NCBI GenBank assembly: GCA_050013255.1
Contig: JBEKFP010000003.1
Location: forward strand, 160,001 to 224,000
DNA length: 64,000 bases
Source of the DNA: Candidatus Bathyarchaeia archaeon
GTDB lineage: Archaea > Thermoproteota > Bathyarchaeia > 40CM-2-53-6
Direction of reading: 5' to 3'
In this document: piece by piece, positions 59,084 to 64,000 of the stretch
Numbering within the stretch: the first letter of the stretch is position 1
Layout of the letters: every line of letters starts with the position of its first letter
The notes under the pieces: model-generated
Databases searched by the model: none
Told to the model about the DNA's origin: nothing
The model's input: only the letters and a program-made list of their open reading frames with translations
Made by a program: the position numbers and the translations under genes

Positions 59084-59698
59084 TCACAGTTTAGTAGCGA
59101 TTTTCTCGATGAAGTTCTCAAGGATTCGCTTGCCTGCCAAGTTCTCTTCGTTCCATCTCTCTGGGTGGAATTGTACGCCGTACAAGGGTTTCTGCTCATG
59201 CTTCATCGCCTCATTTTTCGTATCTTTGGATCTCGCAATTCGCACGAAACCCGGTGGCAGGCGCTTCACTACCTCATAGTGACTTTGCATCACCCTGATC
59301 TTTGCTGGCAACCCCGCCAAGAGGTGATCCTTGTCTTCGAGTTCAACCGTCCGAAAGCCATCAACATGATGGCCTGACTTTGCCACTTCACCACCATAAG
59401 CGATTGCCAGCGCCTGATGGCCGCCGCATATTCCCAATGTCGGGGTCTCGATTTTGGGAAGGAAGGCGAAGAGATTCTCGAATTCCTTCCGGTCGGCTGT
59501 TCGCGTGAACAATGCTTCTGTGCCGCTGAGTATGATGCCGTCGTAGCTGGTGAGTTGGGATGGGTCAAGGTCGGGTAATCTTGCATGGTCAGAAATTGAG
59601 ACTTCTACACCAAGCGTCTTGACTCTCGTTACGAGTTTGTTGAAACTTAGCTTACGTTTAGGGCCAAGGAAGAGGTTCACGACTAGGATCTGCTTCAT
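59084..59698 (-). CDS. Class I glutamine amidotransferase (GMP synthase subunit A-like)
   Basis: GIILSG, LGICGGHQ, SH, GVQFHPE. Confidence 0.88.
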   Translation of the reverse strand: MKQILVVNLFLGPKRKLSFNKLVTRVKTLGVEVSISDHARLPDLDPSQLTSYDGIILSGTEALFTRTADRKEFENLFAFLPKIETPTLGICGGHQALAIAYGGEVAKSGHHVDGFRTVELEDKDHLLAGLPAKIRVMQSHYEVVKRLPPGFVRIARSKDTKNEAMKHEQKPLYGVQFHPERWNEENLAGKRILENFIEKIATKL

Positions 59699-59709
59699 CC
59701 GTCACAGCA

Positions 59710-60083
59710 CCAGGGATTTGTCTCGGGGGCATTTCCATGCGCGTGCATTTTGGTGTTGCGTCTATCGGTTCTGTCAAGTCTTCGCCTGCTTGACTCATCC
59801 GCATCGACTTTGGGCGTTACCGTCAGTCGCGGGCTACCCTACCATCGCTTCACTTGCAGACGCGACGGCCCCGAACCTCAGGGCTCTCATCCGGCATCCA
59901 CCGGATCAGCTAGACCATTCGCGCAGTCAGGGTTTTACGCTCGGTCAAAGCAGCCAGTTACCCAACATCGGCCCAGTCGGCTAATTCGGGCGAAAGCCCA
60001 TATACCGCCGTTGACTCGGCTTCATCGACTGATGACTTGCATGCGTTGATCCAGGAGGCAATGGCCCCTTGAGCAAATCTTGG
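59710..60083 (-). ncRNA. Candidate large structured RNA of unknown family
   Basis: Long terminal pairing, multiple hairpins with minus-strand G-U pairs, K-turn, loop-loop complementarity; no credible CDS. Confidence 0.5.
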
Positions 60084-61455: not shown

Positions 61456-61553
61456 GTGTGTGATACTAGTGGTGCGACCGTCGTAATTTGAACCGTCGTT
61501 CAGGTCGTCCTTGTGTGTGTGGTATCAGTGGTGCGAGCACCCAAATTTGAACC
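61456..61553. repeat. Tandem pair of tRNA-3'-end-like repeats (left of marC)
   Basis: Cores TGGTGCG-N9-ATTTGAACC at 61470-61494 and 61529-61553, each preceded by GTGTGTG. Confidence 0.85.
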
Positions 61554-61569
61554 ACCAGACATAAGGGGG

Positions 61570-62241
61570 CTATGGGAGTGTGATGCCGAATACACCTACG
61601 GCTCCTCGTATGAGGAATGAGATGCCAATGGCTCCCATAAGTATGTCCATGACTTTTCCAGTTATTACCATGACTGATGGCTTCAGGACTTTCATGAGTC
61701 TACTGCTCAAACTGAACAGTAACCAAACGATCACGCAGTCAACCACAATCGCGACTGCCATGCTGAAATCCATCCACCCCTTCGCGGCTCCATACTGAGG
61801 ATTGTTGAGTACCATAACTGTCGCAATCGCCCCTGGTCCAGCCAATAGTGGAATAGCCAACGGGAAAACGGCTATACTGTCAGTAACGCCACTTGACAGG
61901 GTGCGCCCCCTCCTCCTGTATAGGGATTTGGCCGCGCTCTGGACTTCGGATGAGGCGACATCTTTGACCGCGAAGACGAGAATGAATACGCCTCCCGCGA
62001 TCATCACGGAATTGAGAGTGATTTGGAGGGCGCCTAGGATTGCGTCGCCCAAGTACGCGAACACCAACAGTACCGCTATGGCGACTGTAATCGTCTTCCT
62101 GGCAATCGCAGCCTTCCGTTCCCCTGTGGCCCCAGCTGTAAGCCCCTGAAAGAACGGAATAACCCCGAGTGGGTTTAGGATGACGAATAGTGTAATCAGG
62201 GATTCGGTAAGGTCCTGCAGAAAGCCGGTCGAGAATGACAA
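61570..62241 (-). CDS. marC: MarC family membrane protein
   Basis: LF.ILNPLG, IAGG, PLAIPLLAGPGAIAT. Confidence 0.92.
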   Translation of the reverse strand: MSFSTGFLQDLTESLITLFVILNPLGVIPFFQGLTAGATGERKAAIARKTITVAIAVLLVFAYLGDAILGALQITLNSVMIAGGVFILVFAVKDVASSEVQSAAKSLYRRRGRTLSSGVTDSIAVFPLAIPLLAGPGAIATVMVLNNPQYGAAKGWMDFSMAVAIVVDCVIVWLLFSLSSRLMKVLKPSVMVITGKVMDILMGAIGISFLIRGAVGVFGITLP

Positions 62242-62283
62242 AACGTCAACACGCCTACCGTAATGCGCTCGGGGCTACCTAAA

Positions 62284-62400
62284 TGTGTGTGTAGGTAGTG
62301 ATGGTGCGGGCGCCGTAAATTGAACCGTCGTTCGTCGTCAAAAAAATGTGTGTGTGGGTCTTATGGTGCGAGCATCGCAAATTGAACCGTCGTCGTTCGT
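62284..62400. repeat. Tandem pair of tRNA-3'-end-like repeats (right of marC)
   Basis: Cores TGGTGCG-N9-AATTGAACC at 62302-62326 and 62364-62388, flanked by TGTGTGTG and GTCGT. Confidence 0.85.
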
Positions 62401-62963
62401 CCGTCAGGATGGAATAGTTAGAATGGCCTTCGTAAGAAGGAGTGCGGGTATGCTGGTGCGCGCACACACACTGCCTCATCGTCGAGCTGAAGGAACCACG
62501 CCCCCGCCGTCCGTAACTAACTAATGACCCCTCTCTGAAAAAGGGCATGAAGAAGTACTAACTCTAACGTCGCCTCTAGTCTGCGTTTCCACGTATCGTG
62601 AATTTCTTCGAGTGAGTTTGTCAGTCTACGACCTGGACCGTAACACTTTTCGTTGATAATGATTTAGGAGCCTTCTGATTAGGGCCAAGTCTTGTTCAAT
62701 TCTTGGTAGATTCTGTTTTAGAATTGGTTCCGTCATCGCCCTGGCCGGGGCTCGGGACTTGTTAGCAATTGGCACAGAGTCAGGTTCTTTCTCAAAAGTT
62801 TTCTGGCCTGAAGGTCACTTATTCAACTGTAGAGAGGCCTGGTAGGCGAGGCAGGCGCGTTGACCCTCGCCTGCGAGATACATTCTGTATATTGGCAACC
62901 ATTAAACCGACTTGACGTTGTACTCTGTTCTATACCGATACGAAGGAAGGGTGATTTCAACCA

Positions 62964-63164
62964 TTGAGCCACCAGTGTAAATTGTGTCACCCACCTAAGA
63001 TATTTCGATCAATCGACCGACTGCATGAACATCATTGGACGACTCATCGACGATGGTGCTGCAATGTTTGTCATCATTTGAGTCGACTTCACTCAGGATT
63101 TCATGGTTGTGCAGTCTGTGGTTGCAGATACTCGAAGAAACAGCAAGAGCGCCTTCGTGACTAG
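62964..63164 (+). CDS. Small Cys/His-rich zinc-finger protein
   Basis: CKLC..F.S...L.EH...TH plus CCNVC and CAVCGC; GGGTGA RBS. Confidence 0.6.
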   Translation: MSHQCKLCHPPKIFRSIDRLHEHHWTTHRRWCCNVCHHLSRLHSGFHGCAVCGCRYSKKQQERLRD

Positions 63165-63236
63165 AACTCTTTCAGGGCTTCGGAAGTTGCTTATTCGAGT
63201 GTGAGTGCTATGTTGTATCTGAGAGGTGACTAATGT

Positions 63237-63353
63237 ATGGCAAAGCAGAGTAGGGGAGCTAAGAAAGCGTGGACGGCTGCTAGAGATAAGAAGGTGTCGA
63301 AAGCACGCGAGAAGAAGAAGGAACGAAAAGCCGCCCTTTCCACGTATCACTAG
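63237..63353 (+). CDS. 38-aa highly basic protein
   Basis: MAKQSRGAKKAWTAARDKKVSKAREKKKERKAALSTYH*; GAGGTGA RBS. Confidence 0.5.
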   Translation: MAKQSRGAKKAWTAARDKKVSKAREKKKERKAALSTYH

Positions 63354-64000
63354 GAACGCTGTTCTGACGTAGCGGGACGCTTGTGAGGATCACGGGAATA
63401 GCCTATTCAAGGCAGCAATCATTCCTATCATGGTGTCTGCTCGTCAAAGGTGACTTGGATGAGAACTTGCCCTAAGTGCGGTCACGAGATAAATGGAAGA
63501 GTTTGTGTTGTTAAAGACTGTACTTGTGACTGTTACTATGGTTTGAAACAACCCTAAGCCGATGAGAATTTTGAACCGTCGATCTCGTGTGTGATTTCAT
63601 GATTTTGTGATTTTGTCTACGTGTGGGGGGGTAAGGGTGGTTGGGTCTGGGAGAATGTGTTGTTGTGCGCACCATTAGACAATGCCTACTACTCAAAGCC
63701 ATCCAGGAAAGAGCAACCTGACAATTTGCCGCCAGAGGAAGAAGGTGAAGCCCAGAAACAATATTGTCACAATTGTAAATGATACATTCATTCGCTTGTA
63801 TTCAGCCCGCTCACGGAGAAAGCCTCTATGTGAAATTTTAATTGTACACACAGTAAACGATCATAGGTCTGTGATTTTATGAGTCTTCCGAATTTTCCCG
63901 AAAAGATGGAAGGTAGCCTTTTCTTCAGGGAAATAATGCCTCAGTTTCTTCCTGAATACAATCCGTTTAAACTTGCTATGCTTGGTTTGATTGTTGAAAA

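Follow-up and report, generated by a model that had tools for sequence, protein, structure and literature searches.

The window, that is, the whole 64,000-nucleotide stretch of DNA analyzed here, corresponds to C3:160001-224000 of a 2.46-Mb genome in three contigs (C1 to C3). Toward its right end lies marC (61570..62241, minus strand), which encodes a 223-aa MarC-family membrane protein (Pfam PF01914, E 1e-38) and is bracketed by copies of a short repeat. The motif TGGTGCG-N9-AWTTGAACC has exactly four matches in the window (61470, 61529, 62302, and 62364), all of them exact and on the plus strand; the chance expectation is 0.08, and none of 100 shuffles yielded four or more. As the original prediction had described, the copies are arranged as two tandem pairs, one with a 59-bp and the other with a 62-bp period, that enclose marC, GTGTGTG precedes each of the four cores, and GTCGT-rich sequence follows three of them.

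Each copy belongs to a composite unit on the minus strand. Unit 1 (61456..61512) consists of a (GT)n terminus (61456-61462), a 14-mer (61463-61476) that reads CGCACCACTAGTAT on the minus strand, a tRNA-mimicking segment or pad (61477-61494), and a terminal inverted repeat (TIR) stub (61495-61512). Unit 2 (61513..61553), 16 bp past the marC stop codon, comprises a (GT)n terminus (61513-61521), the 14-mer CGCACCACTGATAC (61522-61535), and a pad (61536-61553) of a widely conserved type, GGTTCAAATTTGGGTGCT, identical to a pad occupied by a Cas1-encoding element in the related genome G004 and to one pad in G034, a genome from another family; marC itself sits between a (CA)n terminus and this pad. 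On the far side of the gene, Unit 3 (62285..62347) carries a (GT)n terminus (62285-62294), the 14-mer CGCACCATCACTAC (62295-62308), a pad (62309-62326), and a stub (62327-62347), and it is followed by Unit 4 (62348..62446) with its own (GT)n terminus (62348-62356), the 14-mer CGCACCATAAGACC (62357-62370), a pad (62371-62388), and a longer stub (62389-62446).

Two partial copies that had been noted beyond these units are also real. One is a complete 14-mer, GGTATGCTGGTGCG (62447..62460, minus strand), which is followed by CGCACACACAC and represents the third direct copy of a duplication flanking a Cas1 element; the other is a transposon right-end stub, AATTTTGAACCGTCGATCTCGTGTGTG, at 63566-63593. 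The four units at marC are all left ends in a single orientation, and no GTGTGTG partner ends were found further on from them. The variable halves of their 14-mers (CTAGTAT, CTGATAC, TCACTAC, and TAAGACC) are all different, so that no duplication event can be read from them; with its right end absent, the marC unit thus lacks both flanking duplications and paired inverted termini. Alignment matches Units 1 and 3 to the outermost 45-48 bp of the left inverted repeat carried by intact Cas1-less casposon-type elements, the references being element E2 of G014 and the element at C2:279795 of G000, the pad of which is unoccupied. Unit 4 shares this stub and pad but shows no clear CACACAC tip.

The resemblance of the copies to tRNA 3′ ends, which had been proposed from the motif, is borne out by alignment with the 3′ end of tRNA-Gly, which places all four units in the register of tRNA positions 52-76. 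They are neither tRNA genes nor recognizable pseudogenes: neither ARAGORN nor Rfam reports an RNA gene in the window, the T-stem positions are unpaired, as had been anticipated, and the 5′ half is absent. The supposed imperfect inverted repeat around a variable center comes down to five matching nucleotides (GTGGT/ACCAC) in copy 2 alone.

Read on the minus strand, which is the tRNA sense, a site consists of the stub (A)ACGACGAACGACGAC, the pad GGTTCAAWTT-N6-CC, which mimics the tRNA T-loop and 3′ acceptor strand, the 14-mer CGCACCA-N7, and then CACACAC. The genome contains 20 exact matches to the motif, one being a true tRNA, and a profile search recovers ~100 full or partial copies, arranged in approximately nine clusters with gene-sized spacing. 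Dispersal of the motif through ordinary promoters had been named as evidence against a mobile array; the copies are indeed dispersed genome-wide, but they reside in islands rather than in ordinary promoters. Sites are present in both orientations, upstream as well as downstream of genes. Non-tRNA copies were found in all 22 congeners searched (1 to 28 each), and matches outside the genus are mostly true tRNAs, with the exception of G034, which has 12. Across 26 pad sites, the GCC just before CGCA, which had not been selected for, is conserved at 1.0-1.8 bits, and the pad N6 and 14-mer positions 8-14 are variable.

The 14-mer occurs in several sequence contexts, namely, between a pad and CACACAC (29 sites, including all four marC copies), between GTGTGTG and CACACAC (25 sites), between GTGTGTG and other sequence, and abutting CCGCCCCC or GGGGATATTACATA in place of CACACAC. 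Since three unrelated termini (CACACAC, CCGCCCCC, and GGGGATATTACATA) are thus found next to the same 14-mer, the 14-mer is part of the target rather than of a particular element. A third terminus class, GGGGATATTACATAAGGCTCATTTTCTGAT, is found against the same pad and 14-mer at C1:254435, C1:716091, C2:744711, and L063:3351. Elsewhere on C1, a 6.4-kb segment (C1:1346545-1352993) lies between 72-bp inverted repeats with pads facing outward, and the inner 32 bp of these repeats (GGTTCATATATACCGGTAAATTGGGGTCAGAA) recur by the casposon-occupied pad on contig C45 of G004.

Insertion events can be read most directly from perfect 14-bp duplications around elements that encode Cas1, which, together with TIRs, are found in G004, in G014, and in the island studied here. 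On contig C3 of G014, three copies of the 14-mer CGCACCACTATACC delimit two elements in tandem: the first copy follows a pad, an 8.6-kb Cas1 element with CACACAC..GTGTGTG ends lies between the first and the second, and an 8-kb element lies between the second and the third. On contig C45 of G004, two copies of CGCACCAGCTGACC enclose a 7.1-kb Cas1 element whose inverted repeats read CCGCCGCC; its upstream pad is the very sequence found in Unit 2, and a CACACAC stub lies downstream. The latter locus was also considered as the occupied counterpart of an empty orthologous site in G000, and this pairing was rejected, as the flanks are homologous only over the 70-80-bp pad region and the loci are therefore not orthologs. 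In the present genome, GGTATGCTGGTGCG occurs only five times, and three of these copies lie within the island, in direct repetition and one orientation (C3:239044, C3:228065, and C3:222447, i.e., window 62447), where they form the borders of two pieces, the Cas1 segment, 11 kb long and with CCGCCCCC repeats, and the composite element of 5.6 kb. Finally, G034 has a true tRNA gene whose end, ...CCCGGTGGC, runs into CGCACCAAGGTACC and then CACACAC. The 14-mer at this tRNA junction recurs exactly at nine other distinct junctions among those read and, with a single-base difference, at one more, and its core motif has ~20 matches across G034.

Genome-wide, the duplication signal is weak. Among complete (CA)n..(GT)n units with direct flanks, the two 14-mers agree within one mismatch in 5 of 22, against a background of 10%, and a further 23 units are flanked by inverted 14-mers, an arrangement that a simple duplication model does not give. 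Such inverted flanks could stem from inversion between inverted repeats or from insertions into inward-facing pads. Because the Cas1 element and several small units have inverted 14-mer flanks, we also considered whether the 14-mer and (GT)n form part of one element's inverted repeat. As a general rule this was rejected, given the three terminus classes, the perfect direct triplets, and the junctions seen in either orientation: the terminus of one cassette meets the 14-mer in one orientation in G000 and in the other in G004, which is what a transposon with inverted ends should produce.

The four marC sites constitute the distal portion of an island of ~20 kb downstream of a tRNA gene. The original prediction had suggested looking beyond the right end of the window for a minus-strand tRNA-Leu; a minus-strand tRNA is indeed present 17 kb past that end (C3:241310-241401), and its identity is tRNA-Gly(UCC), with a gene ending in GGCGGCCGCACCA. 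In tRNA sense, this gene is followed by a 2.2-kb segment, a ~30-nt copy of the tRNA 3′ end, a pad, a 14-mer, the Cas1 element, a 14-mer, the 5.6-kb element, and, within the window, another 14-mer, Unit 4, Unit 3, marC, Unit 2, Unit 1, and an EamA gene. The 5.6-kb composite element extends from window position 62461 to C3:228064 with (CA)n..(GT)n ends, and G004 and G014 carry its first sub-element (62461-63593) in other contexts, with 94-96% identity. At window 62678-63340 it includes small modules of 130-190 bp, one of them with a basic ORF of 38 aa; numerous contigs across the genus have copies of these modules at 81-96% identity. The ~30-nt tRNA-Gly 3′-end copy is direct and includes 8 nt of flank (C3:239079-239110 and 241307-241340, equivalent to L003:19079-19110 and L004:1307-1340); the two copies bracket the 2.2-kb segment, which encodes an HTH_5 protein, and have the look of an att pair with no integrase. 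A ~270-bp repeat marks the distal edge of the island (window 59767-60037); it has no Rfam hit, at least seven more copies in the genome (69-89% identity), and further copies in congeners.

Comparison with relatives corroborates the proposal that the region is an accretion array of accessory genes whose content differs from genome to genome with breaks at the sites. On contig C8 of G004, 74 bp separate the counterpart of the GATase gene (window 59084-59698) from that of C3:239104-241323, and the intervening 19.3 kb with EamA, marC, and Cas1 are absent. The same genome carries a further 2.7-kb insert at the same tRNA-Gly. Pieces and units of the island are found again in other genomes of the genus (90-96% identity), with their breaks located at 14-mers. 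The accessory genes of the islands encode transporters, a methyltransferase, and TIR-domain and AIPR proteins, the last two families suggesting a role in defense.

MarC is itself an accessory cargo gene with a patchy distribution, a homologue of any kind being present in 10 of the 22 congeners. The closest, at 73% amino acid identity in G002, sits behind a short pad-like GGTTCAAATTGCC, a 14-mer, and ACACACA; no homologue above that identity, and hence no close one bounded by the same sites, was found in the other genomes. Homology to the G002 copy runs from ~45 nt upstream to ~10 nt past the stop codon and is shorter than the unit, so that the gene module and the unit are not co-extensive. We infer that marC arrived as cargo of a pad-bounded unit, and we take the gene and its four sites to be the oldest, distal, and now diverged or rearranged part of the island.

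A candidate enzyme is encoded nearby. The genome has two Cas1 genes, the first of which (C3:231179-232393, equivalent to L003:11179-12393) lies 9 kb to the right of the four repeats and outside them. Its best match among solved structures is the Methanosarcina mazei casposase 6OPM (E 8e-77), over the full length: residues 4-395 align to 6OPM 21-405, with the C-terminal HTH included, and the catalytic VEG, GFLHE, and EPFR motifs are intact. CRISPR Cas1 proteins, by comparison, score ~1e-22. An HNH gene adjoins it, and the Cas1 segment (C3:228079-239043; L003:8079-19043) encodes, in addition to this HNH, a TIR-domain protein and a TPR protein. It also holds an extra internal copy of CCGCCCCC (C3:237100-237121) followed by an inverted 14-mer. 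The second Cas1 gene, 60% identical to the first, adjoins a gene for an AIPR-family protein (L005:11656-14640; C1:1331656-1334640), and no ends were found for its element. No Cas2 was found in the genome and no PolB among the ORFs of three Cas1 elements; the genome does have three PolB genes, but all map to C2, a long way from either Cas1 gene. Among congeners, nine that have sites gave no casposase match, two of them being 96-98% complete. G017 gave 12 matches, several of which are fragments with in-frame stops, a pattern that suggests a burst and subsequent decay of such elements.

The casposons of M. mazei offer the closest comparison. They integrate at the 3′ terminus of tRNA-Leu and duplicate 14 bp there; this duplication opens with CGCA, the final four bases of the tRNA. 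Their target requires CGCA, the preceding 4 bp, and an upstream tRNA block (bp 12-17) (PMC6977970, PMC4779613). Tandem insertions and solo inverted repeats occur in natural casposons (PMC4779613, PMC6977970, PMC10359463). Like the M. mazei family-2 casposons (MetMaz-C1 and MetMaz1FA1A3-C2), the elements described here combine a Cas1 that possesses a C-terminal HTH, as the C3 protein does, an adjacent HNH, TIRs, a tRNA 3′-end target, and a 14-bp duplication starting with CGCA, the target and this start being evident from the site catalogue, the conservation profile, and the tRNA of G034. Unlike them, none of the Cas1 elements examined here includes PolB, a feature of family 2, and the duplication starts with the longer CGCACCA; the tRNA genes of this genome encode CCA, which accounts for the extension from CGCA to CGCACCA. 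They differ further in that many of the inverted repeats include their own tRNA-mimicking target, Cas1-less units of one to few genes stand in arrays by the dozen, and at least three terminus classes share one target. The minimal target of the Aciduliprofundum boonei casposon is reportedly its 15-bp duplication together with 18 bp from the 3′ end of tRNA-Pro, the T-psi-C loop included; that system differs in the tRNA used, in being a single PolB-bearing element, and in having no arrays. The published natural casposons that were compared have cas1 and polB and occur singly or as tandem pairs, sometimes with solo repeats. In the literature that could be searched we found no natural arrays of the present kind, no natural non-autonomous casposons, and no casposons of Bathyarchaeia.

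Two other systems share part of this organization. Integrons likewise consist of promoter-poor arrays of one to few genes separated by short recombination sites, with content that varies among relatives; here, in contrast, there is no IntI tyrosine recombinase (PF00589 occurs only at a distance of 90 kb or more) and no attI/attC structure, and instead of one foldable palindrome per cassette in a single orientation there are sites in both orientations, inverted termini, 14-bp duplications, and folds no better than those of shuffled sequence. CRISPR arrays resemble the present loci in their Cas1-family integrase, a leader-like adjacent sequence, and a short duplicated repeat, and the likeness extends to the tandem 59-62-bp units, in which a 14-mer is joined to a stub of 45-48 bp. 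Unlike CRISPR loci, those described here have no Cas2 and no effector genes, and their 45-48-bp "spacers" are conserved transposon ends, or whole genes.

We consider it probable that the copies around marC are casposase integration-site units and solo inverted repeats within a casposon accretion island near tRNA-Gly. A complete unit would comprise the tRNA-mimicking pad, the 14-bp CGCACCA target that is duplicated upon insertion, and the CACACAC transposon tip, and the C3 Cas1 casposase or its relatives would insert elements at such pad-plus-14-mer sites. Inverted repeats of Cas1-less elements contain an inward-facing pad of their own, so that each insertion brings with it a new landing site; repeated insertion would in this way have built the ~20-kb island downstream of tRNA-Gly(UCC). 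Units 1, 3, and 4 are, we infer, solo repeat stubs left by elements since lost. We count as observations the make-up of the sites, the presence of a casposase gene, the perfect duplications flanking Cas1 elements, and the differences in the island among genomes; casposase activity on these sites is a prediction from sequence.

This account has to be weighed against three others. According to the original prediction, the copies would be attP-like units of an array anchored at a tRNA gene, into which circular, integrase-less cassettes recombine through a tyrosine integrase, leaving direct att repeats in the manner of an integron. The four marC sites are direct and share one orientation, a tRNA does head the island, and the tRNA-Gly 3′-end copy at C3:239079-239110 brackets 2.2 kb in the manner of attL and attR. 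Yet no tyrosine recombinase was found within 90 kb: the three Phage_integrase genes (C3:28755, C3:131514, and C2:259232) are at least 90 kb from any array, beside tRNAs ending in CCCACCA. Moreover, across the genome the sites take both orientations and many units have inverted termini, the autonomous elements lying between perfect 14-bp repeats encode Cas1, and both the length of these repeats and their CGCA start fit casposons. The repeat resolves into a target, a 14-bp target-site duplication, and a transposon terminus rather than an attP, and an integrase-driven array is accordingly very improbable; casposase target sites with solo inverted repeats are the most likely mechanism.

A second possibility retains transposition or recombination and dispenses with the casposase, such that the units would form a MITE-like (CA)n family moved by another transposase or by recombination, with casposons merely sharing its tRNA-like hot spot. 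That most units lack Cas1, that nine congeners have sites and no casposase match, and that the duplication statistic is weak and inverted flanks are many would all be in keeping with such a family. We nevertheless regard it as unlikely, given that the Cas1 element on contig C3 of G014 has the same CACACAC..GTGTGTG ends together with perfect 14-bp duplications and a tandem second element, that no other transposase was seen in the annotated arrays, and that an artificial Cas1-less mini-casposon integrated in vivo at the resident target in M. mazei and formed a tandem (PMC10359463). It is also conceivable that the units are functional RNAs or regulatory elements under selection, such as tRNA-like small RNAs, promoters, or terminators, a notion that draws on the genus-wide conservation of a short motif and on a minus-strand T-run between Units 3 and 4. 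Against it stand the lack of any Rfam or tRNA hit, the unpaired T-stem and missing 5′ half, unit folds no better than shuffles (z -1.35 to +0.18), the placement of units on either side of genes and in both orientations, and the fact that they mark the breakpoints of shuffling between genomes, which together render a functional role of this sort extremely improbable.

Casposase target sites and solo repeats thus remain our preferred explanation, and they invite a bolder extension that we advance tentatively, with the balance tilting slightly against it. In this Bathyarchaeia genus, casposases devoid of PolB may mobilize many Cas1-less "mini-casposons" of one to few genes in trans, their own-pad ends allowing the island to extend itself as each insertion creates the next target; this would amount to integron-like gene capture run by Cas1, in which the tandem 59-62-bp units, each a solo repeat with its 14-bp duplication, would bridge casposon ends and CRISPR repeats as a natural intermediate. 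The CRISPR adaptation module has been proposed to descend from casposons. In this genus, ~100 casposase-type sites per genome organize accessory genes into variable islands, with the target sequence forming part of the transposon ends. Should the units be mobilized in trans, they would constitute a second kind of gene-cassette platform besides integrons and a living example of short-repeat arrays made by Cas1, with which the casposon-to-CRISPR scenario would become testable with real sequences.
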